The notes under the pieces were generated by a model. The model was given only the letters and a program-made list of their open reading frames with translations, was not told the origin of the DNA and did not search any database. Below, piece after piece: positions 5,050 through 56,493 of a stretch of DNA of 64,000 nucleotides. This DNA comes from Alphaproteobacteria bacterium (GTDB lineage: Bacteria; Pseudomonadota; Alphaproteobacteria; Bin95), in contig JAYNYG010000001.1 of the NCBI GenBank assembly GCA_038102935.1, positions 35,096 to 99,095 of the forward strand. Direction: 5' to 3'. Position 1 is the first letter of the stretch; each line of letters starts with the position of its first letter. The position numbers and the translations under genes are program-made.

Positions 5050-6702
5050 CTATTTCGCTTTTCCTTCAATCACAACATCAATCAGCGCTGGGCCGTCTTT
5101 CGCGATAGCGCGGGCGAGGGCGGCGGTGAAAGCTTCTGGCTCTGCCACCTGTTCGCCCGGAACGCCCATGCCGGCGGCCATCTGCACGAAGCCGAAATCC
5201 GGGCCGGTCAGGTCCATGTGGGTATATCCGCGATTGCTTTCCGCATCGAAGCGGCCGCGGTAGACGTCGATATTGTGTTTTAGAATGCGGTACTCACGGT
5301 TCGACAAAATAATGAACGTGATGTTCAAATTGTGATGCGCCGCCGTCCAGAGAGACTGGATCGAGTACATCGCTGACCCGTCGCCGGAAACGCATACAAT
5401 CGGCCTATCCGGGTTGGCGACAGCAACGCCAATGGCGCCTGCCAAGCCTTGGCCGATGGCGCCGCCGCGTCCGGCGTAATAATCGCCAGGGCCAGCGAAA
5501 TCCAAGCTGCGGGAGAAATCCGTGCTGGCGGTGATGGCTTCTTCAACCATCACAGCATTGTCTGGCAGCGCTTCGGCCATAGCCGCCATGGCGACGGACA
5601 TAGGCATGGGGCGGCGAGATGCAGCGCGAGCCGTGCGGGCTTTCTGGGCCTCACGGGCGTCTGCAGCGGCGGCGGCCAGTTTGTCGGCGCGGGATTTGGC
5701 GGCGGCGGCATCCGGTTTTGCCAATTCGAAAAGAGCGGCAAGCGCTGCCTTCGGCGCCGAGATGGCGCCGGAAGTTAGCGTGAAGTTTTTGGCAAGCATC
5801 TGCGGCGATTGCTCGATCTGGAAGACTTGGCAACCATCGGGGAAGGGGCTGCCGGGTTCGTACCAGACGGGTTCAAAGAACGGCCCGCCGATCAGCAGCA
5901 CGCAGTCTGCATCGCCAAGCATCGTTTTGATGGGGCCAGCTTCGAATGGCAACCCGCCACACATGAGCGGATGGCGTGTGTCTGCGATGGCCTGGGCGTG
6001 CATGCCTTCGGTCCAAATGCTCGCGCCCAACTTTTCAGCCAATTGCAGCAGTTCCCCATTGGCCGCGGCGCGAGCGACGTCATCGCCAGCGACAATGGCC
6101 GGGGCTTTGGCGGACGATAGGGCGGCGGCGATTTCGCTGAGCGCCGCCACATCGCCAACAGGCGCTTGGTGCAGCGGGCCGGAGGTGACGGCGGCATTCG
6201 CCGTTTCTTGCTCCATCACGTTGATCGGCAGCGCCACAAAAACAGGGCCTTTCGGCGCTTCGTTGGCGACTTTGAAAGCGCGGCGCATCACGTCTGCCAT
6301 CTCATCAGCGTTCTCGACCTGCACGGCCCATTTCACGACGGGCGCAGCAATCGAAACCAGATCATGCCCTAGCACCGGGCCTTGCAGCCGCATCCGCGTA
6401 TCCTGCTGGCCCGCGGTGATGACCACAGGCGCATTCGCCCGCATCGCGCTGTACATCATGCCGACTGCGTTGCCGAGGCCAGGCGCCACATGCAGGTTCG
6501 CCACCGCCGTTTTGCCGCTGGACTGCGCGTAGAAACTGGCGGCGCCGACGGCGACGGCTTCATAAAGCGCCACCACGTATTCGATGTCTGGATAGTCTGC
6601 CAGATGGTCGAGCAGGGGGCTTTCCGTAGTGCCAGGATTGCCAAAAATCCGCTTGGCGTCATGCAGCTGCAAGCTTTCCAAAAATACGTCCCGGCCCCGC
6701 AT
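5050..6702 (-). CDS. thiamine-pyrophosphate-dependent enzyme (acetolactate synthase / benzoylformate decarboxylase-like)
   Basis: 550 aa; three-domain TPP layout with GDGS…N TPP-binding motif (CVSGDGSAMYSIQSLWTAAHHNLNITFIILSNREY). Confidence 0.8.
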   Translation of the reverse strand: MRGRDVFLESLQLHDAKRIFGNPGTTESPLLDHLADYPDIEYVVALYEAVAVGAASFYAQSSGKTAVANLHVAPGLGNAVGMMYSAMRANAPVVITAGQQDTRMRLQGPVLGHDLVSIAAPVVKWAVQVENADEMADVMRRAFKVANEAPKGPVFVALPINVMEQETANAAVTSGPLHQAPVGDVAALSEIAAALSSAKAPAIVAGDDVARAAANGELLQLAEKLGASIWTEGMHAQAIADTRHPLMCGGLPFEAGPIKTMLGDADCVLLIGGPFFEPVWYEPGSPFPDGCQVFQIEQSPQMLAKNFTLTSGAISAPKAALAALFELAKPDAAAAKSRADKLAAAAADAREAQKARTARAASRRPMPMSVAMAAMAEALPDNAVMVEEAITASTDFSRSLDFAGPGDYYAGRGGAIGQGLAGAIGVAVANPDRPIVCVSGDGSAMYSIQSLWTAAHHNLNITFIILSNREYRILKHNIDVYRGRFDAESNRGYTHMDLTGPDFGFVQMAAGMGVPGEQVAEPEAFTAALARAIAKDGPALIDVVIEGKAK

Positions 6703-6785
6703 ATCATACTCCCTTGTCAGGCATCGTTTGAAACTGCGAGCATAGCGGCGCGCGTGAAGCGCTGGAAGCCGTAGGAGAATCCCCC

Positions 6786-20225: not shown

Positions 20226-20471
20226 TTGATTGTGGGCAACCCGTTCACCGACCACCCCTCAGATGTTGGCGAGGGCTATTTTGAGCATATGGGCCAGGCG
20301 CTCTCCTTCGCCATCCCAATGTTCTTTGGCGCGTTCGCATGCTTGGTCCACGCCATTTTCCCGTTCCTCTGCCTGAAAACCGGCAGCGGCATCGTGACGA
20401 CGCTTCATGTCCGTATGGTGACGCACCGGGTCAAGCCGGAAAATGCTGACTCGGCGCTTTCCAGGTCCTGA
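20226..20471 (+). CDS. small conserved hydrophobic protein (unknown function)
   Basis: 81 aa, divergent from the Lrp gene; PFTDHP…VGEGYFEH…LVHAIFPFL motif resembles small DUF-type membrane proteins. Weak. Confidence 0.35.
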   Translation: MIVGNPFTDHPSDVGEGYFEHMGQALSFAIPMFFGAFACLVHAIFPFLCLKTGSGIVTTLHVRMVTHRVKPENADSALSRS

Positions 20472-20511: not shown

Positions 20512-21966
20512 TTAGGTGCGGATCGCCTTCGTGACCGGCATGCTGCCCTTATCGCCGGAAGCGGACCAGCCGGTGATGATGCCGGAGAACATGCCGGCGC
20601 CTCCGCCTGCGCGGACGATCAAGAGGCCGCCGTCTCGGAATTTGGATGCAAATGTTCCGCGCCGTGACTCGGGCAAGCCTTCGGCAATACCGCCTTCGCC
20701 GACGATCAATGAATCCGCCGGGCCGGTCATGAGCCCCATCAATCGGTTCAAAAGGTCCGCTTTGCTCCATCCAGCGGCTTTGAAAGTACGCTCATGCTCC
20801 GGGCATACTACGAGGATCGCGTCTGCCGCTGGCCAGAGCTTCGGATGGTTCATGGCCTTCAAGCATTCGGCCATGGAGCGCGCCAGGCTTTCAGGGTCGC
20901 GGGATTTCTGGTCGACGATGCCCTGCAAGCCGTAGCCAGCGAACACTGTGATAGCGTCCTCGCCCTCATTGAAACCGAAATCTGTGGAAAGCGGGCGCCA
21001 GAAAGACCCGGCCTCATCTTCCGCAAAGCAATAGCTGAGCTTGCCAGGATTGCCGAGCGCCGCCCGATCAATGCCGCCAGGCTTGCCGCCGCCGACATTC
21101 CGCACAATCAACTGCACCGACCGCCCAATCGTCAGGTTCGCGCGGTTGCCCTGGCCGAGCGCATTATGCTTCCCGTTCATGCCGATCCGCTGCGCCATTG
21201 GGCCATTCACAACGAACACCGGCCCCACATACATCGTTGTCGCGAGGACGCCATGCATATTGAATGCAGGGTCCAGCACGGCTTCGAGCGCAGCCAATAC
21301 GACGGGGAAATATTCCGGCTTGCATCCGGCCATGACGGCGTTGATCGCGGCTTTCTCGACAGTGCATGGGTCAAGATTAGGCGGGACAATGCCGACGAGG
21401 TCCTGCGCGTCCCGGCTCGTGCCTTCCAGCATCGCCAATACGCGGGCTTCTGTCGGCGGCACGACCGGCAGGCCATCTGACCAATCCCGCGCAAACGCCG
21501 CCTCAATCTCATCTTCCTCACCGCCGAGTGTGACAGGGCGGGCGGCCAGCCCGGTTTCGCCATGGCGGATTTTCAGCATGCGGAGTGCTGCAGGCTCAAC
21601 GTTAGCCGCGCCGCATCCAGGGCGGATCGCCGGCAGACCTTCGCCGACAGGCTGGCCAGCGACACGGCTCCACTCCGCCTGGTCCCAGCCGTAAGTCCGA
21701 TCAACCTCTAAGCCTGACTGGACGCGGATCAGCGTCGGTACGATTTCGATATCCAGGTTGTATGAAGCCGCTAATTCCCGGTCGTCGATAACTTTGGCGA
21801 CCGCTTCCGGGAATGCGGGGTCATCCTGGCTATAAACATCAAGCCGCCCCTGGCTTTCTAGGGCCGCCAGCACCGGGCCTGCAAGTTCGCAGGTCGGGCA
21901 ATCGCGTTTCACGATGGCGATCAAGCCATCTCCGGTAGCAGCAAGCACTTCAGCGGGATTGGGCAT
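20512..21966 (-). CDS. fusion protein: thioredoxin-like CxxC (CPTC) N-domain + C-domain paralogous to the UGSC-associated proteins at 45459 and 48032
   Basis: N-term …IAIVKRDCPTCELAGPVL… (thioredoxin-like). The C-domain shares the DGLPVVPPT…AINAVMAGC(K/L)PEYFPVV…NRANxTIGR…GNPGK(L/F)SYC…AGWSKAD blocks with ORFs 45459..46505 and 48032..49111. Confidence 0.6.
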   Translation of the reverse strand: MPNPAEVLAATGDGLIAIVKRDCPTCELAGPVLAALESQGRLDVYSQDDPAFPEAVAKVIDDRELAASYNLDIEIVPTLIRVQSGLEVDRTYGWDQAEWSRVAGQPVGEGLPAIRPGCGAANVEPAALRMLKIRHGETGLAARPVTLGGEEDEIEAAFARDWSDGLPVVPPTEARVLAMLEGTSRDAQDLVGIVPPNLDPCTVEKAAINAVMAGCKPEYFPVVLAALEAVLDPAFNMHGVLATTMYVGPVFVVNGPMAQRIGMNGKHNALGQGNRANLTIGRSVQLIVRNVGGGKPGGIDRAALGNPGKLSYCFAEDEAGSFWRPLSTDFGFNEGEDAITVFAGYGLQGIVDQKSRDPESLARSMAECLKAMNHPKLWPAADAILVVCPEHERTFKAAGWSKADLLNRLMGLMTGPADSLIVGEGGIAEGLPESRRGTFASKFRDGGLLIVRAGGGAGMFSGIITGWSASGDKGSMPVTKAIRT

Positions 21967-42089: not shown

Positions 42090-43199
42090 ATGGCCATTCG
42101 GACCGCACTCTGTGATCTACTGGGCATCGAACACCCGATCCTGCTTGCTGGCATGGGGGTCTGGGGCATGGCGACGCCGCCGGGGCTGGTCGCAGCTGTT
42201 TCCGAGGCTGGCGGCCTAGGTGTATTGGGGTGCTCGGGGTTGAGCCCGGAAGAAATACGCCAACGCGTCAAAGCCGTCCGAGCGTTGACGGATAAGCCCT
42301 TCGGCGTGGACCTGCTGCTGCCCGCAACGCTGGCCCCAGCCGCCACGACGCGCAGCGGCGTCAGGGCTGAGCTTGATCAGAAATTCCCGGAACACGTCGC
42401 CTTTTATCGCGGCTTGCTGGACCGGTTTGCACTTGCCGAGACGCCAGTCCAAGACGATATCGTCATCTCGTCCGAATTCATTGAGGCCCAAATCGCTGTC
42501 ACGCTGGAAGAGAAAGTACCGGTATTCGCCGCTGGCCTGGGCGATCCAGGTCGTGTGACGGGCCGGGCGAAAGCGCAGGGCATGGTGACGCTTGGCCTCG
42601 CTGGCTCCCCCAGAAACGCGGCCCGGCAGGTTGAAGCAGGAGTAGACGCCGTTGTGGCGCAAGGAACGGAAGCGGGCGGGCACACGGGCCGCGTCGCCAA
42701 TTTCGCACTTTTGCCGCAAGTGGTGGATGCCGTCGGCGCAACGCCGGTGATCGCGGCGGGCGGTATTTCAGATGGGCGCGGGATCGCGGCGGCGCTGGCT
42801 TTCGGCGCATCCGGCGCATGGCTCGGCTCATTGTTCCTGACGGCGGACGAAAGCGACATGCCAGACGCCTGCAAGGATGAGCTTATCCAGGCCCGCTCCA
42901 CTGACATGGACGTCACTCGCGCCTGGACCGGCAAAACACTCCGCGCCCGCAAGAACGAAGTATCCGAAGCCTGGGCGACCAGTGGCCTCGACCCTCTGCC
43001 GACCCCGCATCAACGCGTACTAATGGAAGATTTCCTGGAGGCGGTTAAGTCCGCCAAACGCTGGGACCTCTTCATGAACGCCGCCGGCCAAGGCATCGGC
43101 ATGGTCTCCAAACGCAAACCAGCGGCAGAGATCATGGCGGACCTGATTGCGGGTACGGAACAGGCGATCGCCCAGCTGATGGCGCGGACGGGGAGGTAG
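42090..43199 (+). CDS. nitronate monooxygenase (NMO) family, second paralog
   Basis: LGIEHPILLAGMG…GGLGVLG… NMO pattern; 369 aa. Confidence 0.8.
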   Translation: MAIRTALCDLLGIEHPILLAGMGVWGMATPPGLVAAVSEAGGLGVLGCSGLSPEEIRQRVKAVRALTDKPFGVDLLLPATLAPAATTRSGVRAELDQKFPEHVAFYRGLLDRFALAETPVQDDIVISSEFIEAQIAVTLEEKVPVFAAGLGDPGRVTGRAKAQGMVTLGLAGSPRNAARQVEAGVDAVVAQGTEAGGHTGRVANFALLPQVVDAVGATPVIAAGGISDGRGIAAALAFGASGAWLGSLFLTADESDMPDACKDELIQARSTDMDVTRAWTGKTLRARKNEVSEAWATSGLDPLPTPHQRVLMEDFLEAVKSAKRWDLFMNAAGQGIGMVSKRKPAAEIMADLIAGTEQAIAQLMARTGR

Positions 43200-43224
43200 A
43201 GGTCTTGATCGCCCGCGATCCCGG

Positions 43225-43578
43225 TTAGTGCATGGCGAAGGCGCTGGCGGGGATGACGCCTTTGAAGGCGCGGCCTTCCGGGCGGACGGGCAGGCCGGTA
43301 TCGACGCGGATGCGGCCCTGGCGGTATTCGGCGTATTGCTCCGCCGCAAGGCGCGGGTCATAGGGGATGGCGGCGTGTTTCCATTCGAAGGCGAAGGCCG
43401 GGGCCGCAGCGTCCTCTGGCGCCTCATCCGCCAGGCGGAAGCCTTGGCCTTCGCGGTCCAGCCAAAGGCCGGCTTCCGCCATACGGGAGAGGATCGTGAC
43501 CGGCTGGCCATTGCTTTCGCCGATGACCGTGCCCGGCCGCATCAACACGCTGAAGGGCGCGCCTTCTTCCGGCGTCAC
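43225..43578 (-). CDS. hypothetical protein (possibly truncated at the island border)
   Basis: 117-aa ORF with high-GC codon usage, abutting the AT-rich island; no recognisable motif. Confidence 0.3.
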   Translation of the reverse strand: MTPEEGAPFSVLMRPGTVIGESNGQPVTILSRMAEAGLWLDREGQGFRLADEAPEDAAAPAFAFEWKHAAIPYDPRLAAEQYAEYRQGRIRVDTGLPVRPEGRAFKGVIPASAFAMH

Positions 43579-43621
43579 TGCCTTCCGGGCAGCTCAACCG
43601 CGCCCGCCATCCTTCTGGGGT

Positions 43622-44020
43622 TAATCCAATAGTACTAATAGCTTTTTTTTATCTTTATTCATTATCTCGGTAAAATCCGGCACTTCTTCGGCGCTAATTA
43701 TTCCTTCGATTACACTTATTGCGCTTCTATCGGATAGCTTTTGTTGCCCTGATTGGGTGCTGTCCTGGCCATTAAGGCCGTCCCACTCGAGGCCATATCT
43801 CGCGACGGTACGAATAAGATTGAATGTTGCATCCGACTCGGTGCCACCGTTAATCGAGATGGCCCCTTCAAACCAAGCTTTAGTGTTCTGATCTAGTCGT
43901 GGTTAAAACCTATTTGCCTTCAAAATATACTCATAAGCTTCGTGATACCCCGCTTCTCCACGGTTAGCTTGTTCAAACAACTGCTTCAGTCGACAAATTT
44001 GGTAATTTGTTAACTTCATT
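43622..44020 (-). pseudogene. degenerate ORF with in-frame TAA (MKLTNYQICRL…ANRF*PRLDQNTKAWFEG…)
   Basis: Own translation of the minus strand: ~130 codons in one frame interrupted by a single TAA; AT-rich; no Met after the stop. Confidence 0.3.
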
Positions 44021-44110
44021 TGGACCGGCATCAGTTTTCACTCTTCATGTTTCGAACGTCCAACCATGAAATAATAGTATTGTTAGCAAACTTGAATGAG
44101 TTATCCACAC

Positions 44111-44644
44111 CTATACTTGGGATAAAGGAAAATAATTATGGCCAGCAAGGTGAAATTTGCTCAAATAAAAATACCCATGGCATCGCGATCCTAAATACAA
44201 AGAGTGCTTGTGCGTGTCACATACTGCAAAATAAGCAATACCCGATTTAGACAAATCATTCACTGCTATCTCAGATAGCTCCACAGTTGCTGGCTTAAAT
44301 ATCTTTGTGCTCGTTCCACTTGCACGTGATTCATAAGGTGATCCTTTTGATACGATTCTATCGACTCGGCTCAATATCTCTGACGAATTCTTGAAATCCA
44401 TTGCATTCCATATGTCGCCGCGTTCATCCATAAACGCAACATACACAATGGAGGAAAATTTGCCCCCTTCAAGATCGGGGCATATTAATGATCGATCAGA
44501 TTCTCTAAACATACCGGCAAGAGGTTGAATGTCAGGCATCCGGAATACCGCTGCAGCCTTAGAATCACCGTATCTAAGGCCACCGGCATTAATGGGAATA
44601 TGTGGCGGAATCATATTTACGTATTTCGTTCGAAGAGGATTCAA
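44111..44644 (-). CDS. hypothetical protein within the AT-rich island
   Basis: 177-aa ORF, AT-rich codon usage unlike the host genome; no recognised domain. Confidence 0.3.
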   Translation of the reverse strand: MNPLRTKYVNMIPPHIPINAGGLRYGDSKAAAVFRMPDIQPLAGMFRESDRSLICPDLEGGKFSSIVYVAFMDERGDIWNAMDFKNSSEILSRVDRIVSKGSPYESRASGTSTKIFKPATVELSEIAVNDLSKSGIAYFAVCDTHKHSLYLGSRCHGYFYLSKFHLAGHNYFPLSQV

Positions 44645-44885
44645 ATATATAATCGGTATTGTTGCTGAGGTTTAGTCAGATAACTTCACCGTTTGCAGTA
44701 ATCCGCGATACCAAGATAGTGCAATCTGATGTTTGTTTAATTCTGAGCGCTCTATGGTTGAACAAGAATTTTCATAATCTGCATAGGCGATTGCCGACCT
44801 GCTTCCGCAGATACATAGGCATGAAAAGACCAAGCATAGGAATATATTCGTCGCGGCCCGAGCTTGCAGACAAATGCTATTCATC

Positions 44886-45240
44886 TCACCGCTCCCTCAA
44901 ACTTTCATCCGCATACCGAAGCAGCGGACTCAGGAAAAACGTTATCGTGCGACTTGCCCCCGTTTTCACTTCCGCAGCCACAGCCATACCAGGCGTCAGT
45001 GGTACCCGACGGCTATCCACCGGTATACTAGTTTCAGCCATGGAGATGCGGGCCTCATACACAAGGCCGCGTTGTTCGTCCTGGATGGCGTCCGCGGAAA
45101 CGCGGAGGACTTTGCCTTTGATGAGGCCGTAGCGGGTGAAGGGGAAGCTTTCCACCTTGATCTCTACCTCCTGACCGGCGCGGACGAACCCTGCGTCCTT
45201 GTTTTGGACGAAAGCTTCAATCTCCAGGCCGCCTTCGGCG
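44886..45240 (-). pseudogene. HlyD-family type I secretion membrane-fusion protein, C-terminal fragment only
   Basis: Translation …GGLEIEAFVQNKDAGFVRAGQEVEIKVESFPFTRYGLIKGKVLRVSADAIQDEQRGLVYEARISMAE…LSPLLRYADESLRER closely parallels the E. coli HlyD C-terminus (…VEAFPYTRYGYLVGKVKNINLDAIEDQRLGLVFNVIISIEE…LSPLEESVTESLRER). An in-frame TAG lies upstream and the N-terminal ~350 aa are absent. Confidence 0.7.
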
Positions 45241-45458
45241 GGCCAATGCTATCGTTTCCCTGGCAGCAACACCGGGTCCGCCGGGTTGACCACTGCGCCC
45301 AATGAAGAGACCTAAAGGTGTAGAACGATACCGTTGCTGAATCCCAAGTGCAACGATAGAGACTTCAAGCTCTTTTGCGTGTGCGCCTACGTCTTCCAGA
45401 CATTCAACAGTTATAATAATCTTTGTCCTAACTTTGTACGCTAACGGAGACTCACCTC

Positions 45459-46505
45459 ATGACCCTCGCCGCACAGACCTATGACATCGCTGATATGGCG
45501 ACGGCGCAGGAGTATTATCATAGTCGTGGGTGGACGGATGGGCTGCCTATCGTGCCGCCGACGGCGGAGGCCGTGCAGGCCTGTCTTGAATGGGCGATGA
45601 TGACGCCGGATCAGCTTGTGGGCGTAGAGCCCGTGCGGGAACGGGCGATTACGGCGGAGAAATTGGCGATCAATGCTGTCATGGCTGGGTGCCTGCCGAT
45701 GCACTTTCCCGTGGTCGTCGCGGCGTTCACGGCGATGCTGCAGGAGCCGTTTTTGATGCATGGGGCGACGGCCAGCACGGGCGGGTGTGCAGTGCTGATC
45801 GTCATCAACGGGCCTGTCCGCAAGGAACTCGGCATGAGTGGGCAGTTCAACGCCATCGGCTCCAGCGACCGGGCGACGTCTGTTATCGGGCGGGCGATCC
45901 GGCTGACGATGATCAACCTGATGGATGTGCGCCCCGGCCATATTGACCGATCTACGCTCGGCCATCCGGGCAAGTTCAGTTATTGCATCGCGGAGGATGA
46001 GGAAAACTCAGCGTGGCTGCCGCTCGCCGAAGAGCGGGATTGCCCGCCGGGCGCATCCTCCGTCACCGTGATGGCCGCGATGGCGCCGCGTCAGCTTATG
46101 AATGAGTGGACGACCGAGCCAGAGCAAATTCTGGATACGTTTGCTGCTGAAATCAAAGCGAATATGCGGCATTACTCGATCTGGCCTGGCAACTACGCCA
46201 TCGTCATAGCACCCCAACTTCGCACGCATTTCGAGAAGGCTGGATGGTCCAAGGCGGATGTCAGGCGCTATGTGTTTGAGAAAGCGCGTATCCTCAGGAA
46301 AGAATGGGCGGATGTCGGTAAAGCCTCCGTTGTCAAGCGGCGCGGCGATCAGGAATATGCGGCATTGCCGGATGAAGATCACCTGTTGGTCATCGCTGCT
46401 GGCGGCCCCGCCGGCGGGTTCGGCGCTGTTATCCCGCCCTGGCTTGGTCATAAAAGCCGGGCCGTCACAATCCCCATCGGCGTATGCGTCGATTGTGAAA
46501 TTTAG
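45459..46505 (+). CDS. conserved protein of unknown function, UGSC-selenoprotein-associated (paralog 1)
   Basis: 348 aa; shares GWTDGLP(I/V)VPPT, AINAVMAGCLP(M/E)(H/Y)FPVV, HG(A/S)TASTGG, GMxxxxNxxGxxNRAxxxIGRAxRL, GHPGK(F/Y)SYCIAE, AGWSKAD and C-terminal CVDCEI/CIDCD blocks with 48032..49111 and 20512..21966. Confidence 0.6.
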   Translation: MTLAAQTYDIADMATAQEYYHSRGWTDGLPIVPPTAEAVQACLEWAMMTPDQLVGVEPVRERAITAEKLAINAVMAGCLPMHFPVVVAAFTAMLQEPFLMHGATASTGGCAVLIVINGPVRKELGMSGQFNAIGSSDRATSVIGRAIRLTMINLMDVRPGHIDRSTLGHPGKFSYCIAEDEENSAWLPLAEERDCPPGASSVTVMAAMAPRQLMNEWTTEPEQILDTFAAEIKANMRHYSIWPGNYAIVIAPQLRTHFEKAGWSKADVRRYVFEKARILRKEWADVGKASVVKRRGDQEYAALPDEDHLLVIAAGGPAGGFGAVIPPWLGHKSRAVTIPIGVCVDCEI

Positions 46506-46525
46506 AGAATGGAGAGCTAGAGACA

Positions 46526-47047
46526 TTGCAAGTTCTTGATCCAACCCATGAAGCCGATGTGGTGGGGCTCGTGCCGCCGCCGAGGCTGGACACGCTGGCG
46601 GGCAAAACCGTCGGCGTGATCTCAAACGGCAAGGAGGGCACCAAGCGCTTCTTCGCTGCGATTGAGGCTGAGCTGCGCGAGACCCACGGTGTCGCCGATG
46701 TCGTATGGCGCACCAAAGGCAATTATTCCGCGCCGGCGCCAGAAGCCATCATGGCGGAGGCGGCAGGCTGGGACGCCATCATCTCCGGGGTTGGGGATTG
46801 AGGCAGCTGCTCGTCGTGCAGTTTGCATGACGCAGTGGCTGGCGAACGGATGGGCGTGCCCTCTGCGGGCGTTATGACCGTGCCGTTTTCAGATGCGGCA
46901 GACCTGATGGCCCGCGTGCTCGGCGCGGAAGACTTCCCGTTTGTGGTAATCGACCACCCGATCAGCAGCGCCTCTGAAGAGGCGTTGCGGGAGCAAGCGA
47001 AAACCGCTGTGGCGCAGAGCGTCGCGATCCTGACGAAAGCGGCCTAG
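46526..47047 (+). CDS. UGSC-family selenoprotein (in-frame TGA at 46799..46801 read as Sec; 173 aa)
   Basis: Track ORFs 46526..46801 and 46823..47047 are in the same frame separated only by TGA. The context is …ISGVGD-U-GSCSSCSLHD… (a U-G-S-C UxxC motif). A paralog at 49127..49648 has identical architecture, and a hairpin lies directly 3' of the UGA. TTG start. Confidence 0.6.
46802..46832 (+). promoter_or_regulatory. putative bacterial SECIS hairpin immediately 3' of UGA
   Basis: GGCAGCUGC[UCGUCGU]GCAGUUUGC is an 8-bp stem (one bulge) with a 7-nt G/U-containing loop. The paralog has GGCAGUUGC[UCAACGU]GCAGUUUGC, where the C→U change keeps pairing (U·G). Confidence 0.45.
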
Positions 47048-47071
47048 AGCATCCGGGGCGACCGGCGGGGG

Positions 47072-47914
47072 CTAGCTCCGCCGGTGGCCTTTGTTGTCTG
47101 CGCCCGCGAACAGTACGGATTCTCGGCGTTCAACATCCCTAGCGACGGCTGCCAAGTCTTCGTCCAGAAGTGTTCCCTTGGGCGGATCCGTCAGCGTGAA
47201 ATGGCCGTACCGGTCTTCACCTGCAACGAGCGTCACTTCCGTTTCAGGGCCAGACTGCGCCTTCATGCTCGGCTTGATGTAGCGGATGGCGGCGCCGAGT
47301 CTCCGATCATCTGTAGTGTTTGGGCCCGAGGCGTGGAACAAATGGCCATGATGCATCGAGGCTTGGCCGGTCTTGAGCGCAGCATCGACGGCGTCTTCTT
47401 CCCGCACGTCCACCTGCAGTTCCTGGCCGCGCGTCAATAGATTTTCCGCGTTGAAGCTATCTGCATGGGGCTGGATACGCTCGCGATGGCTGCCGGGCAC
47501 GAAGCGCATGCATCCGGCCTCGACGCTGGCAGGCGATAGCGCCACCCAGATCGTCACTTCGTCAGGCTCATCCAGGCCCCAATATGTGAGATCTTGGTGC
47601 CAGCTCACATAATTTGGCGTGTTCGCTTCCTTGATGAACATGCTGGAATTCCAGACCAGCAGGTCCGGCCCAAGCACCGCAGAGGCTGCGGCGATCATGT
47701 TGGGGTGGCGGATCAAGGCGTCGAAGGAGGGCATCAAACGCGCTGGAAAACCGCGGGCCATGGCCCGCTTCTTTGGATCATCCGCGTATTTCGCTTCTGC
47801 GGCTTCCAGGTCATTTCGTAGGGTTTGCGCTTCATCAGCCGACAGAATGTCCAGCGGGAATACGAAGCCGTCACGTGCGTAATCCGCCGCGACTTGAGAG
47901 GAGATGCTGTTCAT
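47072..47914 (-). CDS. phytanoyl-CoA dioxygenase (PhyH)-family Fe(II)/2OG oxygenase
   Basis: 280 aa; PhyH-type WHQDLTYW motif and double-stranded beta-helix His/Asp…His ligands (H…D at WHQD, later HHGHLFH). Confidence 0.8.
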   Translation of the reverse strand: MNSISSQVAADYARDGFVFPLDILSADEAQTLRNDLEAAEAKYADDPKKRAMARGFPARLMPSFDALIRHPNMIAAASAVLGPDLLVWNSSMFIKEANTPNYVSWHQDLTYWGLDEPDEVTIWVALSPASVEAGCMRFVPGSHRERIQPHADSFNAENLLTRGQELQVDVREEDAVDAALKTGQASMHHGHLFHASGPNTTDDRRLGAAIRYIKPSMKAQSGPETEVTLVAGEDRYGHFTLTDPPKGTLLDEDLAAVARDVERRESVLFAGADNKGHRRS

Positions 47915-48031
47915 AGCGATATCCTAAACTTGGCCGCCGGAGAGGGGAAGATGGCAGGCCGCATCAATTTTCTTCAACGTTTGCGCTGCTCTGGGCTACA
48001 CTCAGCCCGAAACGGGTGAGGGGATAGGGCG

Positions 48032-49111
48032 ATGCCACGGGATTCGGCGCGCATCCATGACGTGCCAGACGATCTGCTAGCTGCGATGGATTACTGCTAT
48101 GAGCAGGGCTGGACGGACGGTTTACCCGTCGTCCCGCCGGTGACGGATCGCGTTGAAGCGATGATGATGTATGAGGGCCGCCCGCCTGAAACCGTCATCG
48201 CATTGCATCCTGCGACCGGCCTGGAATGTACAATCCATGCGGCGGCTGTTAACGCCGTTATGGCTGGCTGCCTGCCGGAATACTTCCCTGTTATCGTCGC
48301 GGCGTTCGAAGCGATGCACGAGCCAGATTTCAATTTCCACGGCTCGACAGCAAGCACGGGCGGATCAGCGCCATTGCTGATTGTCAGCGGCGGCGTGGCG
48401 GACGAAATCGGTATGAATTCTGACGTGAACCTGTTCGGCCCCGGCAACCGCGCCAACGCGACGATTGGGCGTGCGACGCGGCTTATTCTGCGGAACGTAT
48501 TTCAGATGATCCCTGGAATTTCCGATAAATCCACCCAGGGTAATCCGAACAAATACAGCTTCTGCATCGCGGAGCGGGCGCGGGATAACCCATGGCCGCT
48601 TTTGGTCGAGACGTTGGATTACCCGGAGGGTGTCAGCAGCGTGACGGCCTATGCTGGCGGCGGGTTTTTCAATGTCGAGAACCATGGTGGCGCGACGCCG
48701 GAAGCTGTTTTAAGCTCATTCGCGGATACGATGGCGGGCCTCGGCGTATTGACCCTTGGCCAATCTGTCATTGTGTTGTCGCCAGAGCATATGCGCATCC
48801 TAGGCAATGCCGGGTGGACGCGCGAGAATGCGCAGGATTATCTGTTCGAGAACGCTAGGCGGAGCCGTGCAGATATGGAAACTGCCGGGAAATTCCGGGA
48901 GCGCGACTACGCCCGGCAGCGCGACCCAGCAGTCAAGAGCTCGCTCTTGCATGACGGTTATATGCATCGCGGCATCAGCCCCGCAGACATCCTGATCATC
49001 ATGGGCGGCGGCGATGCGGGCGGCCATTCCAGCTTCATTCCATCATGGAGCCGGGCGCGGAGTTCGCTGATGCAGTCGAAACCCATCGGCGTTTGTATTG
49101 ATTGCGATTGA
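48032..49111 (+). CDS. conserved protein of unknown function, UGSC-selenoprotein-associated (paralog 2)
   Basis: 359 aa; same conserved blocks as 45459..46505. Confidence 0.6.
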   Translation: MPRDSARIHDVPDDLLAAMDYCYEQGWTDGLPVVPPVTDRVEAMMMYEGRPPETVIALHPATGLECTIHAAAVNAVMAGCLPEYFPVIVAAFEAMHEPDFNFHGSTASTGGSAPLLIVSGGVADEIGMNSDVNLFGPGNRANATIGRATRLILRNVFQMIPGISDKSTQGNPNKYSFCIAERARDNPWPLLVETLDYPEGVSSVTAYAGGGFFNVENHGGATPEAVLSSFADTMAGLGVLTLGQSVIVLSPEHMRILGNAGWTRENAQDYLFENARRSRADMETAGKFRERDYARQRDPAVKSSLLHDGYMHRGISPADILIIMGGGDAGGHSSFIPSWSRARSSLMQSKPIGVCIDCD

Positions 49112-49126
49112 TTGGAGACGTCAGAC

Positions 49127-49648
49127 ATGCAGCTTTATGATCCCACTGTAACGGGGCCAGACCGGCAGAGCCGCCGCGCGCCGCCGCTCGCCTCGCTTGA
49201 GGGGCTGACTGTCGGTTATCTTGAAAACGGCAAGCTGAACGCAACCAACATGTTGCGGGAAACGGCGGAAGTATTCGTCGCCCGTCATGGCTGCCAAATA
49301 GGCCCTGTCTATTCGAAGTTTAACGCCAGCGCGCCAGCGCCAGAAGCCACATTGCGCTTGGCTGCGGACGAAGTCGATTTTCTGATAACCGGGCTCGGTG
49401 ATTGAGGCAGTTGCTCAACGTGCAGTTTGCATGATGGCGTCAGCTTCGAACAACTCGGCAAACGGGCGATTGTGGTTTGTACAGAGCCTTTTGAGGTGAC
49501 GGCGAAGAACATCGCCCGCATGCTCGGCCTGCCGGATTATCCGTTTGTGATGGTTGAGCATCCGTTAGGCAGCCGCTCATTGAATGAAGTTAAGGTGCTT
49601 GCCGAACACGCCTATCAACAATCCCTGCCAATACTCCTGGAGGCATAG
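49127..49648 (+). CDS. UGSC-family selenoprotein, second copy (in-frame TGA at 49403..49405; 173 aa)
   Basis: Track ORFs 49112..49405 and 49427..49648 are in frame across a single TGA; context …ITGLGD-U-GSCSTCSLHD…. Start taken at ATG (MQLYDPT), homologous to MQVLDPT of copy 1; identical length to copy 1. Confidence 0.6.
49406..49436 (+). promoter_or_regulatory. putative SECIS hairpin 3' of UGA (copy 2)
   Basis: GGCAGUUGCUCAACGUGCAGUUUGC folds like the copy-1 element; nucleotide conservation exceeds that of the rest of the two genes. Confidence 0.45.
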
Positions 49649-49656
49649 ACGACGCC

Positions 49657-50793
49657 GTGGGTGAGATTATTACAGATATCAGATTGATCGGCGTCCGCGT
49701 GTCGCCGAAGACAGCATGGCTTTTTGTTGAATTGACAGGCGGTAGCGGCCTCCAAGGCTTTGGCGAGGGCACGCTGAACGGCAAGGAAGAGGCGGTCGCC
49801 AAGGCGGCGGAAGGTTTTGGCCGCAACGTCCTTGGCCAAGATGCCGGGGATGCTGCGGGCCTTTCTCGGTTGCTGCCGTTCGGTGCTTTGCATGAGGCCG
49901 CGTTCTCGTCCGCAGTCTTGCAGGCGGCAGCGGATTTGGATGCGCGTTCCCGTGGCATTTGCTTAGCGGAGGCGCTTGGCGGATCAACCCGGTCAGAGAT
50001 CGGTCTCTACGCCAATATTAATCGGCGGACTGAAGACCGGTCGCATGAAGGCTTCGCAGCCAGCGCCAAGGCCGCCAGGGACGCAGGCTATAGCGCCTTC
50101 AAGATCGCGCCCTTTGATACCGCTGCGCCGGATATGCCGCCGGGACAGTGGCGCCCGCTTGTCGAGGCTGGGCTGCGGCGCATCGGCGCCGTCCGTGAAG
50201 TTATCGGACCAGATGCGCGTTTGATGGTCGATTGCCATTGGCGCTTCTCTGAACCAACGGCCTCATGGGTTCTAGATGCTGTCGAGCCGTTTGATCTCTA
50301 TTGGTTCGAATGCCCGATCCCGCGCGAAAACATAGCGCTTGGCGCGTTGATGCGGTTGCGGTCACAAGCCAATGCGCTGGGCGTGCGGTTAGCTGGCGCT
50401 GAAACGGGCATCAAGCTGGCCGGGTTCGAGCCGATGCTCAAAGCCGGCGCCTATGACGTGATGATGCCGGATGTGAAATATGCTGGCGGGCCTGCCGAAA
50501 TGATGCGGATCGCCGAAGCCTTCTCCGCCCATGACGTGACGTTCTCGCCCCATAATCCGAGCGGACCCATCTGCCATGCGGCGTCAATGCAAATTTGCGC
50601 CGCAGCTGAGAATTCTGATCTGCTGGAAGTGCAATATGACGAGACGCCAGTCTTCCAAGCGCTAGTCGATAATTCGATGCCTGCAATCACAGGCGGGACT
50701 GCGCCATTGCCCGGTGGTGTAGGTATCGGCGTTAGTTTGAATGTCGATCTTTTGGCGAGCTTGGAGCCTGCAACAGCTTGGCAAGCCAGATAG
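49657..50793 (+). CDS. enolase-superfamily enzyme (mandelate racemase/muconate lactonizing enzyme family)
   Basis: 378 aa; MR/MLE N-terminal capping domain and TIM-barrel with metal-ligand D/E/D region (…MVDCHWRF…, …DLYWFECP…, …MMPDVKYAGG…); GTG start. Confidence 0.8.
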   Translation: MGEIITDIRLIGVRVSPKTAWLFVELTGGSGLQGFGEGTLNGKEEAVAKAAEGFGRNVLGQDAGDAAGLSRLLPFGALHEAAFSSAVLQAAADLDARSRGICLAEALGGSTRSEIGLYANINRRTEDRSHEGFAASAKAARDAGYSAFKIAPFDTAAPDMPPGQWRPLVEAGLRRIGAVREVIGPDARLMVDCHWRFSEPTASWVLDAVEPFDLYWFECPIPRENIALGALMRLRSQANALGVRLAGAETGIKLAGFEPMLKAGAYDVMMPDVKYAGGPAEMMRIAEAFSAHDVTFSPHNPSGPICHAASMQICAAAENSDLLEVQYDETPVFQALVDNSMPAITGGTAPLPGGVGIGVSLNVDLLASLEPATAWQAR

Positions 50794-50860
50794 GACCGGA
50801 TAATCTTTGCAATAACAGGCGTTCGCCTCAAATGAGACGCCAAATCTGCCCGGGAGCTCG

Positions 50861-51823
50861 TTGATGGATCAACCGATCAAACAGTTCGATGGAATGACAG
50901 TGTCGCCGCTTGGCGCCGCGCCATTTGGAAAAGAAATTTCGGGCCTGAAGCCCCGCGTGATGACCGAAGCGCAACGCGCCGCGATCCTGGAAGCATACCG
51001 GGACGGCCACGGCCTTCTGTGCTTCCAGTTCGAGGCGATGCTCGAAGAAGATGAACTGCACGCGATGACATCCGTATTCGGCGAAAATGAATTCGCGCCC
51101 GGCTTGATCAATGGCATTGGCAAGAAAGCCTTGCCCGGCGAAGAGCATCTGACTGTCGAAGATCAGGTTGCTGCGCATCAGGCAAACGGGCGCGACCCTT
51201 ACCTGGCCTATATCGGCAATGTCGATCCCAAGTCGCTTGCGGTCGAGAAGACGCCAGATAAGTTCTTTGGCGAATGGGAATGGCATACGGATATGTCATA
51301 CATTCCGACCCCGCCGACCTTCAGTTTGCTGCACGCTCGAATTATTCCCGAAGAGGGCGGTGATACAGGGTTCTGTAGCCAGGTAATGGCGGCGCAAGCC
51401 TTACCGGCGGACCTCCGGCGTAAAATCCTGCCATTGCAGATCAAACATGACTCCACCTACGCCAGCAACGGCTTGTTGCGGCCAGGCATGTCTGTCCCGG
51501 ACTCGCCGATTGAGGCGATTGGGCATCCACATCCGATCATTCGCAAAGTGCCCTCAACCGGCGATGAGGCGCTTTTCCTTGGCCGCCGCACAAACGCGTA
51601 TGTGGTGGGGCTGCCGCTGGACGAAAGCGAGGCGCTCTTGGATGAGTTGTGGGCGCACGCCACTAAGCCAGAGTTCCAATATCATCACAATTGGACCGTC
51701 GGTCAGGTTGTCGCCTGGGACAATCGGATGATGTTGCACATGCGTAGCCCCGTCGATACGTCCAAGGCCCGGTTCATGTGGCGGACACAGACGAAGGGTG
51801 AAGGCGTCGTATCGGCGGCGTAA
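50861..51823 (+). CDS. TauD/TfdA-family Fe(II)/2-oxoglutarate dioxygenase
   Basis: WHTDMSY…D and C-terminal H (…AWDNRMMLH…R) motifs. Confidence 0.8.
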   Translation: MMDQPIKQFDGMTVSPLGAAPFGKEISGLKPRVMTEAQRAAILEAYRDGHGLLCFQFEAMLEEDELHAMTSVFGENEFAPGLINGIGKKALPGEEHLTVEDQVAAHQANGRDPYLAYIGNVDPKSLAVEKTPDKFFGEWEWHTDMSYIPTPPTFSLLHARIIPEEGGDTGFCSQVMAAQALPADLRRKILPLQIKHDSTYASNGLLRPGMSVPDSPIEAIGHPHPIIRKVPSTGDEALFLGRRTNAYVVGLPLDESEALLDELWAHATKPEFQYHHNWTVGQVVAWDNRMMLHMRSPVDTSKARFMWRTQTKGEGVVSAA

Positions 51824-51918
51824 GCCTGCCAGAGAATACAAGACGTTTTTCGAGGCTCTGTCCTGAGCAATAGCGGAGTCTACCTACGCTCAAGGATAGG
51901 GCGTTAAGAGGACTTCGC

Positions 51919-53481
<1,563 letters not shown>

Positions 53482-54803
53482 TGACGGGCCTTGACCGTGC
53501 GGGACCGCTGCCAGGCTACTATCCATCGCCCTGGCCGGTTGAGTGCGGCGGCAATCGGCGCCAGAAAGCTGCCGCTGGAGGGTTGAACGCCCAGGGCGCA
53601 GAAGCCCGCGTTACCTGCCGCAACGATGATCGCTGGCATGTCATGACGATCCGTCGCGCCCCCGGCGAAATATATGTTGGCGGCACGATGCCTGCCTGGC
53701 ATGGTCCAGAACCTTACGGCTGGCTTCAGAAGCTTGATCCCGCAACGCTTGAGCCAACCGCACAATCGCCGGAGCTGCCTGCGGGCGGGCATGTTTGGTG
53801 CGGCGCGATTGCAGCGCATGCCAATGGCGATCTCTATAAGGTCAATGGTTGCTACATGCACCGCCTCGATCCGGAGTGCCATGTGGTGGCGGAACGCCGC
53901 TTGCCCGTCGATCAAGCCCATAACGGCATGCTGATTTTGAGCGATGGCAGCATCGTCACGAAAGATTTGCGGCTGGCCGGGCAGGGGCCGTCCACAGTGA
54001 CGCGACTTTCCGCTGATGGCCTCCAGGTGATGGGCGAGCCGCTTCGGTTGCCCGAAGGCTCTATGGGCCGCATCGCCAGTGATCTGACTGCGGATGGCGA
54101 AGTTATCTATATCCCTGGCATTGAGCATGTTTGGCGCATCCGTGTTGATGGCGATGCGCTTGCGGTCGATGGCGCGTGGTCACCGCGTTATCGTGATGAG
54201 CCGGGGGAACAGGGGCTATCCTGGGACGGATGCGTTTCTGATAACGCGCTCTGGCTCATGGATAATGGCGATATCGATAGCCTCCGGGCGATCTATGGAA
54301 CGCACCCCAACGGCCGTTTCGATGGCCCCGAACATCGCCTGAGTTGGCGCCGCCCGGCGCTTTGGTCAGGCCCGCAACGCTTGCTGAAGGTTTCGCTCGC
54401 GGATGGCGGTATCCAGTCCACCGCGCCATTTGGCACGCCCGGCGGTGGCATCATCGCGCCGCCGGTTTATGTGCCAGAGCATAAGATGTGCATTGCTTGG
54501 GACAGCATTAATGGCGGATTGGCGGGCGTGTCGGACGAGAGCGGCGAATTGAAAGTCGCTTGGACTGTAGATGCGCGGGCATCAATGCAACCGGTTGTGT
54601 TCCCGGATACGGGTGAGCTTGTGATCAACGACTTCACACCCGGCGACGACCGCTTGATCGTTGTCGATATCCAAACCGGCGAAGTCATCGATAGCGTCAG
54701 CACAGGCTCGCACGTTGCGAACGGCATGTTCTTAACGCCAGGCGGCGACCGGGACATCTACTATTGCTCGACCTACGCCGTCGCGCGGGTGCAGTGGGGG
54801 TAA
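53482..54803 (+). CDS. hypothetical protein (possibly beta-propeller-like)
   Basis: Start chosen at the ATG overlapping the upstream stop (TAATG); the track ORF 53364.. is an out-of-context 5' extension. No recognised motif. Confidence 0.45.
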
Positions 54804-54952: not shown

Positions 54953-55612
54953 TCAGGCGAGCGAGGCTACGTCTGCGACCGTCTTGGACGGTTCGGGACG
55001 GCTTGTATAGTCGGCGTCGATATCGGTCATGCGGACGATGCCGGATGTGTCGACAACGATCCGAGCCGGGATCGGAAGGGTCCAAGTGTCGTCGCCATTG
55101 AACTTCGGCAGATTGAGGCCAAAGCCGTTGTAGATTTCCTTCACGGCGTCTGGCACTTCAAAGCGCAGGCCAAGTTCCGCCGCGTAGGCGTTGCCCGGAT
55201 CGCTCAGCAAGTGGAAATTCAACGTATTCTTTACCGCCATTTCCTGATTGTGTTCAGGCATTTGCGGCGTGAGCGCTACGATAGTTGCGCCATATTGGGC
55301 GAGGTCGTCAGCCACTGCTTGCAAAGCATACAGCTCTGCGTTGCAGTAGGGTCACCAAACGCCGCGAAATACAGATACAACGAGCGGGCCTTGGCTCAGC
55401 AAGTCTGCCGAATGGACCTGGACGCCATTGGCATTGTCCAGGCTGAAATCGGGCAGCGAGTCGCCGACTTTGATTGTGTGATCGAGGACGCCGGAATTCC
55501 GTTGATCTTCCGTCGCCTGTTTCATAATGGCGCGTTTGTAGGGCGGAATGCGTTTGGACGAGGCCTCGCGCATTTCCGCCAATTGGGCTTCAAGTGTCAT
55601 GGTAGCTCCCAC
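54953..55612 (-). CDS. AhpC/TSA (peroxiredoxin-like redoxin) family selenoprotein candidate, in-frame TGA at 55352..55354 (complement); 219 aa
   Basis: Track ORFs 55352..55612 and 54953..55324 are co-directional and in frame (660 nt total). My translation across the junction gives …VVSVFRGVW-U-PYCNAEL…, so the TGA occupies the first Cys of the redoxin W-C-P-Y-C motif. Confidence 0.5.
55300..55351 (-). promoter_or_regulatory. possible SECIS-like hairpin 3' of the UGA in the Prx-like gene
   Basis: mRNA UGA-CCCUACUGCAACGCAGAGCUGUAUGCUUUGCAAGCAGUGGC contains CUGC…GCAG and UGCUU[UGC]AAGCA pairings; the fold is less clear than for the UGSC genes. Confidence 0.25.
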
Positions 55613-55749
55613 AGAAAAAATGAGGGGGTGAATGCAGGCTGCCGCGAGAATGCGAGGCCTGCCGGTAAAGTCATCGCCCGCGCGCGTTATAGAGGCAAGA
55701 CATATCTTTGTGAGCAGAAACGGCGATACTTTTGCGAAGGGCGCAAAGA

Positions 55750-56493
55750 TCAGACGACCAACTGCATCCTATCAGCCGCAAAGCGCGCAATCCCGAATTC
55801 TGTCGGCGAGCCATCGTTATCGACGTTAACGCCTTCTGTAATCAGCACTGGGCGTCCACGTGGCAGCGCCAACCTGCGTGCTTCCTCGGCTGTTGGCGGG
55901 CGGGCATAGATGCGTGTCTCCTGGCGCTCATAGTCCGCCAAGCCGCAGGATTTTAGCGCTTCAGTGATGGAGTGTGTTTTGGCGAAAGCCTTATCGATCT
56001 TCGGAAAGCGCGCGGCGCTGAAATAGTGGGTGGCCAGCGAAAACGGTTCGCTATCGACCAAGCCCAGCCGTTCGACGCGCCAGACATGGGCATTGCCGGA
56101 AAGCTTGAGCGCCGACCGCGCGTCCTGGTGGGCGCGCTCCTTTACGCAATCTAGGATGCGTCCTGCCGGTATACGTTGCTGAGCTGAAAGATTGGCGCTG
56201 AACCGAACGCGCTTACCGAGCGGATATTCAACGACTTCCCGGTTCACGAATACGCCGCGGCCTTGCTCCGTCCGCACCAGTCCGCTTTCGGCCAACGTTG
56301 CGAGGGCGCGGCGGACTGTGTGGCGGTTAACGCCGAACCGCGCTGTCAGTTCCCGTTCCGTCGGCAACCGGCCATCTTGCTCGGCAAACTTATTCGCCTT
56401 GATATCGCCTTCGATGGCAGACGCAATTTGTCGCCAAAGCGTTCTGCCATCGCCGCGTAGTAGCGGGCTAGCCTGATCAAATTCATCCGTCAT
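55750..56493 (-). CDS. phnF: GntR/HutC-family phosphonate-metabolism transcriptional regulator
   Basis: N-terminal GntR wHTH (LPTERELTARFGVNRHTVRRALATLAESGLV) plus UTRA effector domain; divergent from phnG. Confidence 0.8.
   Translation of the reverse strand: MTDEFDQASPLLRGDGRTLWRQIASAIEGDIKANKFAEQDGRLPTERELTARFGVNRHTVRRALATLAESGLVRTEQGRGVFVNREVVEYPLGKRVRFSANLSAQQRIPAGRILDCVKERAHQDARSALKLSGNAHVWRVERLGLVDSEPFSLATHYFSAARFPKIDKAFAKTHSITEALKSCGLADYERQETRIYARPPTAEEARRLALPRGRPVLITEGVNVDNDGSPTEFGIARFAADRMQLVV

Follow-up and report, generated by a model that had tools for sequence, protein, structure and literature searches.

The thioredoxin-partner fusion gene and its paralogs

The window analyzed in this work is a stretch of 64,000 nucleotides (nt) of an Alphaproteobacteria bacterium (assembly GCA_038102935.1, contig JAYNYG010000001.1, positions 35,096 to 99,095 of the forward strand). 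Unless a locus is named, all coordinates refer to this window. It contains a gene at 20512..21966 (-), with an ATG start and a TAA stop (20512-20514), encoding a protein of 484 amino acids (aa) in which an N-terminal thioredoxin (Trx) module is fused to a domain of ~335 aa, hereafter called the partner domain. Two stand-alone paralogs of this domain are located elsewhere in the window, each directly followed by a gene for a selenoprotein of the UGSC family. The open reading frame (ORF) of the fusion gene is genuine; its 120 best homologs (120/120) are all ~480 aa long and share 65-90% identity with its product. Trx-fused proteins of this kind are currently annotated just as ‘thioredoxin family protein’ or ‘hypothetical protein’.

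The fusion protein is composed of three parts. Residues 1-105 (21652..21966 (-)) form the N-terminal module, with a predicted β-α-β-α-β-β-α order of secondary structure elements and, from the translation, a CPTC redox motif (residues 23-26, including C23 and C26; 21889..21900 (-)) at the start of helix 1. They are followed by a conserved linker (residues 106-150, 21517..21651 (-)) with an RPGCG motif, of which C118 is encoded at 21613-21615. The partner domain spans residues ~151-484 (20515..21516 (-)) and contains C215 (AINAVMAGC, nt 21322-21324) and C313 (SYCFAEDE, nt 21028-21030). The protein ends in ...TKAIRT, without a CxDC tail. The initial annotation had named the cysteine of AINAVMAGC and a C-terminal CxDC for a mapping of conserved cysteines; C215 is indeed invariant, and the CxDC is absent from the fusion protein and found in both paralogs instead.

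An AlphaFold2 model of the fusion protein, based on an alignment of 70 sequences, reached a mean predicted local distance difference test score (pLDDT) of 89.8 and a predicted template modeling score of 0.87. The predicted fold of the N-terminal module superposes on thioredoxins, with a helix (H24-39) following CPTC. C23, C26 and P77 are invariant in 193/193 sequences of the fused family, and so is V76-P77, at the position of the cis-Pro loop before strand 3. The linker is modeled with a pLDDT of ~93 and its C118 is kept in 192/193 of these sequences. Sequence searches with the N-terminal module returned marginal thioredoxin-like matches only: TIGR01068 (thioredoxin) scored 13 bits and did not reach its cut-off of 96.8, and the sole Pfam match was TraF, with 17.7 bits against a cut-off of 23. 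As predicted by the model, the N-terminal module is a thioredoxin fold, which bears out the proposal of the initial annotation for residues 1-110.

The partner domain belongs to a large family. When 1.84 billion cluster representatives were searched exhaustively, 5,638 matches were obtained with E ≤ 1e-3, of which 1,283 reached E ≤ 1e-30. D164, N209, C215, H238, R275, R282, K309, C313 and E316 are invariant across the Trx-fused and the stand-alone branches, and C215 and C313 are present in 192-193 of the 193 fused-family sequences. The window gene thus has the complete Trx(CPTC)-RPGCG-partner architecture, including the invariant C215 and C313. No Pfam or NCBIfam family matched the partner domain, whether one sequence was searched or 61 members were (E ≤ 10). 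Its profile found no relative among the sequences of the PDB, and fold comparison found no solved structural relative, despite confident models. One candidate relationship, to PF06684 (AA_synth/DUF1185), was discarded as noise. This family matched 11/61 members, over a stretch of 19 residues located in a variable insert, and DUF1185, barbiturase and chorismatase structures appeared in the sub-threshold Foldseek list with template modeling scores of ~0.2.

The two stand-alone paralogs were detected by tblastn of the 484-aa protein against the window, with matches covering residues ~140-470. Paralog 1 (45459..46505 (+), 348 aa) is 42% identical to the fusion protein and paralog 2 (48032..49111 (+), 359 aa) 36%, with E-values of 1e-60 and 7e-57, respectively, far beyond chance; the identity between both paralogs is 37%. 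They end in a CVDC tail (GVCVDCEI) and a CIDC tail (GVCIDCD), respectively. This CxDC C-terminus is shared by 119/120 of the closest homologs of paralog 1. It is located in the low-confidence C-terminus of the predicted model and is presumably flexible.

Directly after paralog 1 lies the gene for UGSC selenoprotein 1 (46526..47047 (+)), with the TGA codon for selenocysteine (Sec) at 46799-46801 and a hairpin resembling a Sec insertion sequence behind it; UGSC selenoprotein 2 is encoded directly after paralog 2 (49112..49648 (+), Sec TGA at 49403-49405). In both genes the in-frame TGA precedes GSC and the frame stays open for ~80 codons beyond. The hairpin after the UGA of UGSC 1 has a folding free energy of -29.8 kcal/mol (z -2.8), and the one after the UGA of UGSC 2 is not separable from shuffled sequences (z -0.73). 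Both proteins match Pfam PF24696 (UGSC; cut-off 25), UGSC 1 with 165.7 bits (E 1e-48) and UGSC 2 with 151.8 bits (E 3e-44). Against NCBIfam NF041046 (cut-off 125), UGSC 1 scores just above the cut-off (126.9) and UGSC 2 just below it (112.2). The neighbors of paralogs 1 and 2 are thus members of the UGSC family (PF24696/NF041046). No selA, selB or tRNA-Sec gene was found within the 64-kb window.

No UGSC-like sequence is present near the fusion gene. A tblastn search with 76 UGSC probes gave noise at 19-23 kb (E > 1), and no degraded UGSC remnant beside the gene was found among the matches. ORF analysis, tblastn and UGSC probes therefore agree that the window holds a third partner paralog with an N-terminal CPTC and no adjacent UGSC gene, as initially annotated. 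On its 3' side, 408 bases with a convergent DUF6356 gene are followed by an Lrp/AsnC regulator and an M19 peptidase; on its 5' side lies a divergent EthD gene. The convergent DUF6356 gene (20226-20471 (+)) lies 40 nt from the stop of the fusion gene. Since a 90%-identical relative (L081) shares this arrangement, the lineage of the window gene has kept its orphan context stably.

Association of the partner domain with UGSC selenoproteins

The architecture of the family was classified with local probes for the best 150 representatives. Trx-partner proteins account for 38/150 and partner-only proteins, fragments included, for 94/150, and six consist of a tandem of two partner domains (~710 aa). 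UGSC-to-partner fusions were found ten times; many of these are cut N-terminally just after the UGA, and two are full-length, one of them with CGSC. At least two partner-to-UGSC fusions end in ‘...GD’, with the gene call terminated by the UGA. The genuine Rosetta-stone fusion is thus that of the partner domain with UGSC, and it occurs in both orders.

Genomic loci were surveyed with one genome per species, resulting in at least 598 loci, of which the best 80 were taken. All 80 are Trx-fused, at 51-79% identity, and derive from Alpha-, Beta-, Gamma- and Deltaproteobacteria, Actinomycetota, Chloroflexota, Myxococcota and others. A UGSC gene is located 9-231 nt downstream on the same strand in 75/80 loci, and a TGA occupies the U position in all 75 (74 UGSC, one UGAC). 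The five loci without UGSC comprise three contig ends, L007 and L013, which brings the count to 75/77 informative loci. L013 is the closest relative of the window gene among the best 80. At L007, a transposase-like gene (5847-6779 (-)), which we take to be of the IS1595/ISXO2 type from its N-terminal sequence, occupies the expected place of the UGSC gene, which suggests a disruption by insertion. A Trx-partner gene followed by a Sec-UGSC gene is the normal genetic unit and the ancestral one. Because the UGSC gene lies downstream of Trx-fused genes across genomes, the Trx module is an addition and not a substitute for UGSC.

This distribution bears directly on the logic of the initial annotation, in which a CxxC module fused in one copy was set against a separate UxxC selenoprotein in others. 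Under that logic, the partner domain would be a reductase in need of one dedicated carrier, for which a separate UGSC protein and a fused Trx are interchangeable. The window by itself fits this explanation, as its Trx-fused copy has no UGSC neighbor and both Trx-less copies have one, and both modules bear a (C/U)xxC motif. The co-occurrence across genomes already contradicts it, however: Trx-fused genes keep their Sec-UGSC directly downstream in 75/77 informative loci, one of the two exceptions (L007) has an insertion sequence-type transposase at the UGSC position, and UGSC itself resembles GrdB/PrdB rather than thioredoxin. We consider interchangeable carriers very improbable.

Stand-alone copies are linked to UGSC as well. 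Among five tail-less representatives, UGSC is adjacent in four (two upstream, one downstream and one in an array). In the CxDC-tail branch, to which paralog 1 belongs, UGSC is located downstream in TARA and other assemblies. Together with the fusions in both orders and the 75/77 Trx-fused loci, these data support the tight link between the partner family and UGSC that was proposed initially. The array, at L089 (1-6368), reads UGSC, partner, isochorismatase, UGSC, partner, partner, UGSC, partner; window-like multi-copy arrangements are therefore not unique.

The two built-in dithiol modules do not coincide. Of the 120 closest Trx-fused homologs, 118 have CPTC and none (0/120) has a C-terminal CxxC, and 45/46 of the other full-length stand-alone representatives have neither Trx nor a CxDC tail. 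In both subfamilies examined, the Trx module and the CxDC tail exclude each other. Judged from this distribution, they may be alternative built-in entry points for electrons, and free thioredoxin would serve by default.

The window gene is part of a small clade, with relatives of 77-90% identity, that has lost the adjacent UGSC gene; assembly GCA_040263875.1 is one of the genomes of this clade. The 90%-identical relative has the same context (EthD, fusion gene, DUF6356, Lrp, M19) without UGSC, the 77% relative has a different context, likewise without UGSC, and the 69% relative has UGSC downstream. The ratio of nonsynonymous to synonymous substitution rates (dN/dS) of the window copy is 0.045 against the 90% relative and 0.11 against the 77% relative, ratios that are approximate since dS is near saturation, and all invariant residues are retained. 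The orphan copy is under strong purifying selection, and these ratios and the full retention of the invariant residues rule out a decaying pseudogene. A lineage-specific expansion, suggested initially for the three paralogs, does not agree with their divergence: they are old subfamilies and not recent duplicates, because their mutual identity is only 36-42% and the window fusion and paralog 1 have orthologs of 75-94% identity in other assemblies.

Several further observations were made on these loci. The genes selA and/or selB lie directly beside the Trx-partner/UGSC cassette, downstream or upstream, in 11/80 loci (L017 (6052-9341), L025, L029, L034, L041, L058, L061, L064, L069, L076 and L079), which suggests that UGSC may be a principal Sec client in these genomes. 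Gene callers split UGSC into two ORFs at the UGA or truncate the fusions (L086 5449-5967, L092 4077-4607, P0285, P0368, P0301 and others), and since they break at the UGA, both the selenoprotein and the fusion are hidden in databases.

In the window (42090-53481) and at L092-L095 (75%-identical TARA and other assemblies), the pairs of CxDC-tail partner and UGSC are situated among common accessory families, i.e. NMO and the PhyH and TauD dioxygenases. An AMP-binding ligase and an MR/MLE enzyme are added in the window, and a CoA-transferase III and a GGACT protein in the other assemblies. This neighborhood may represent a conserved catabolic cluster that hints at a substrate. Just upstream of paralog 1, a stretch of low GC content (44000-45300; 0.51 vs ~0.59) holds a familyless 177-aa ORF (44111-44644 (-)) and an 89-aa fragment (44886-45155 (-)), which presumably resembles the C-terminus of an HlyD-type membrane-fusion protein; the stretch may be the scar of an insertion or rearrangement. 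Downstream of the cluster, two ORFs (53364-54803 (+), 479 aa, and 55211-55909 (+), 232 aa) match no Pfam family at E ≤ 1e-3.

A putative two-subunit selenoenzyme

No function of UGSC is given in the literature searched, nor does that literature mention the partner family as its near-obligate companion, the absence of solved structural relatives of this family, the Trx-fused or CxDC-tail variants, or a link between UGSC and GrdB. A thioredoxin-like fold was guessed for UGSC by Zhang & Gladyshev 2008 (PMC2398784). Hyphomonas neptunium, a cultivable species, is reported to encode UGSC (PMC1976440). The invariant residues of UGSC are D-U-G-S-C-x-x-C-x-x-H-D plus a few others. In profile searches with 18 UGSC proteins, weak matches were obtained to GrdB (TIGR01917, 16 proteins), GrdF (14), the generic GrdB/PrdB profile TIGR01918 (8) and GrdH (7), and no family besides this GrdB/GrdF/GrdH/PrdB type recurs among the 18. 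The alignments to the GrdB profile keep a constant register in its Sec-bearing region: residue 77 of UGSC corresponds to position 333 and the U to about position 347 of 431. They extend to residue 165 (profile position 418), some reach both C-termini, and the best E-value is 1.4e-4. From these matches, UGSC is likely, but unproven, to be remotely homologous to the Sec-bearing C-terminal part of the protein-B selenoproteins. The initial annotation had cast UGSC as a mere redox carrier; by these weak matches it seems closer to the catalytic, Sec-bearing portion of the GrdB/PrdB-type reductases than to a thioredoxin-like carrier.

Our best model, to which we assign about an even chance, is a two-subunit selenoenzyme that resembles protein B of glycine/proline reductase, with a novel large subunit and with recycling by Trx or the CxDC tail. 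In glycine reductase, the thioredoxin system returns oxidized components to their reduced state. D-proline reductase binds its substrate on the large subunit PrdA, where the Sec of PrdB attacks it, and is then reduced again (PMC11229817); the three roles proposed here for the partner domain, UGSC and the Trx module or tail are based on the analogy with this enzyme. The partner domain would be the large, substrate-binding subunit and UGSC the small Sec-bearing subunit with which it would form a complex, following the plan of the protein B of glycine, sarcosine, betaine and D-proline reductase. The selenol of the invariant U-G-S-C-x-x-C-x-x-H-D would attack the bound substrate, and a neighboring cysteine would resolve the covalent adduct to a selenenylsulfide. 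Electrons would then flow from a dithiol module to this selenenylsulfide. In the Trx-fused subfamily this module would be the CPTC of the fused Trx, perhaps relayed via C118. For paralogs 1 and 2 it would be the flexible C-terminal CxDC tail, and for tail-less forms presumably free cellular thioredoxin. The window copy would most likely use a UGSC protein encoded elsewhere, or work on thiols alone.

Several results weigh against this model. The scores of UGSC (12-21 bits) are far under the cut-offs, with 20.9 vs 602 for TIGR01917 and 15.4 vs 65.45 for TIGR01918. Pfam GRDB (PF07355) does not match UGSC at all. A hidden Markov model of UGSC aligns U to U with the five short GOS ‘GrdB’ fragments taken from Dataset S1 of PMC2398784, at a noise-level score (best 3.7 bits, E ~5) that is background for these fragments. 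The partner domain has no sequence or fold similarity to GrdE/PrdA or any known enzyme, and nothing in it points to a pyruvoyl group or another cofactor. The neighborhoods give no clue to the substrate, as nothing besides UGSC is common to more than ~15 of the 80 Trx-fused loci. Finally, there is no UGSC near the window copy, and the fifth tail-less representative (L090) is a real orphan with neither UGSC nor Trx. Apart from these points, the UGSC profile found no match among PDB sequences. It is conceivable that the invariant Gly214-Cys215 of the partner domain is a candidate autoprocessing site for pyruvoyl formation; for PrdA, such a cofactor was probed with hydrazine or fluorescein-thiosemicarbazide (PMC11229817, PMC9908766).

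The orphans would be accounted for by another explanation, in which the partner domain is a self-sufficient thiol enzyme that uses C215 and C313, its disulfide is recycled by Trx or the CxDC tail, and UGSC is an optional accessory, e.g. a more efficient resolving or electron-transfer subunit. The persistence of orphan copies would follow, both in the clade of the window gene, where purifying selection acts and the adjacent UGSC is absent, and in the stand-alone orphan L090, and C215 and C313 are invariant in all subfamilies. An optional role fits poorly with UGSC adjacency and fusion that are near-universal in several subfamilies, however, and the window genome still has two UGSC proteins able to act in trans. 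Copies with neither a UGSC neighbor nor a Trx fusion, which would loosen the proposed link if they were widespread, occur only occasionally, L090 being an example. We regard a self-sufficient thiol enzyme as unlikely.

The spacing of the UGSC motif allows yet another interpretation. U-x-x-C-x-x-C-x-x-H-D and the partner cysteines might bind a metal or an iron-sulfur (Fe-S)-type cluster, or traffic selenium or sulfur, with Trx keeping the ligands reduced. The CxxCxxC-like spacing with an invariant His and Asp, a weak ferredoxin match of one UGSC protein, the adjacency of selA and/or selB in 11/80 loci and sub-threshold fold similarities that include Fe-S hydro-lyases and selenophosphate synthetase are in line with such a role. 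Yet none of these similarities is significant, UGSC as the main Sec client would account equally well for the selA/selB linkage, and the consistent matches are to GrdB-type proteins and not to metalloproteins. We judge metal binding or selenium/sulfur traffic to be improbable.

Beyond the two-subunit model, we put forward more tentatively, at clearly less than even confidence, that partner and UGSC form an unrecognized class of Sec-dependent reductases, widespread among aerobic bacteria of water and soil. Such a class would combine a GrdB/PrdB-like mini-selenoprotein with a large subunit of new fold and with electron entry through Trx or CxDC, and might reductively cleave C-N or other C-X bonds of small nitrogenous compounds, e.g. 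betaines. The CxDC pairs lie in a conserved cluster with TauD- and PhyH-type dioxygenases, a CoA-transferase or ligase, and NMO. If true, this would assign a function to a selenoprotein family that ranks among the most abundant orphans of the ocean.

The specific claim of the initial annotation is only partly right, and the system behind it is of wider interest than one fusion. The near-obligate partner domain of UGSC is represented thousands of times and has neither a curated family model nor a relative of solved structure; one major branch of it has a fused thioredoxin and another a CxDC tail. The orphan selenoprotein UGSC can hence be placed in the hypothesis of a two-component enzyme, which is open to experiment and names residues for mutagenesis. 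UGA-split UGSC calls and truncated fusions conceal the association with the partner, which is a lesson for annotation.

Comparison with known systems

The N-terminal module shares with thioredoxin, TlpA, ResA and DsbE-like proteins the predicted fold, a CxxC located where helix 1 begins, and the conserved proline of the cis-Pro position. It differs from thioredoxins in its marginal sequence similarity, below the curated cut-offs, in having CPTC and not CGPC, and in being covalently joined to its presumed client.

The CxDC tail invites another comparison. In the R1 subunit of class Ia ribonucleotide reductase, a CxxxxC tail shuttles electrons into the active site. The stand-alone paralogs likewise have a conserved CxDC at their extreme, low-confidence C-terminus, and it is absent exactly where Trx is fused. 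This likeness is an analogy only and does not imply homology.

With regard to UGSC, the window fusion gene differs from members of the UGSC family (NF041046/PF24696) in having neither a UGSC domain nor a UGSC neighbor. A UGSC/Unknown_1 fusion from ocean metagenomes (PMC2398784) is similar in that UGSC is joined to a conserved domain of unknown function, which may or may not be the partner domain.

The nearest known kind are the selenoenzymes GrdB/GrdE and PrdB/PrdA; partner/UGSC would be a variant of them in which the large subunit is another one and the reductant module is built in. As in GrdB, GrdF or GrdH with GrdE and PrdB with PrdA, a small or medium-sized Sec subunit with UxxC would be combined with a separately encoded large subunit, and the weak alignments of UGSC to proteins of this type, constant in register, cover their last ~45-95 residues, which bear the Sec. 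A thiol system regenerates the known enzymes and probably also partner/UGSC. Unlike the GrdB/PrdB type, UGSC is only ~170 aa long and scores far below the family cut-offs, and the presumed large subunit has no detectable similarity to GrdE/PrdA, no solved structural relative and no indication of a pyruvoyl group. The hosts of partner/UGSC are mostly aerobic Proteobacteria, Actinomycetota and Chloroflexota and not Stickland fermenters, and the presumed reductant module is fused to the partner domain as Trx or appended to it as a CxDC tail.

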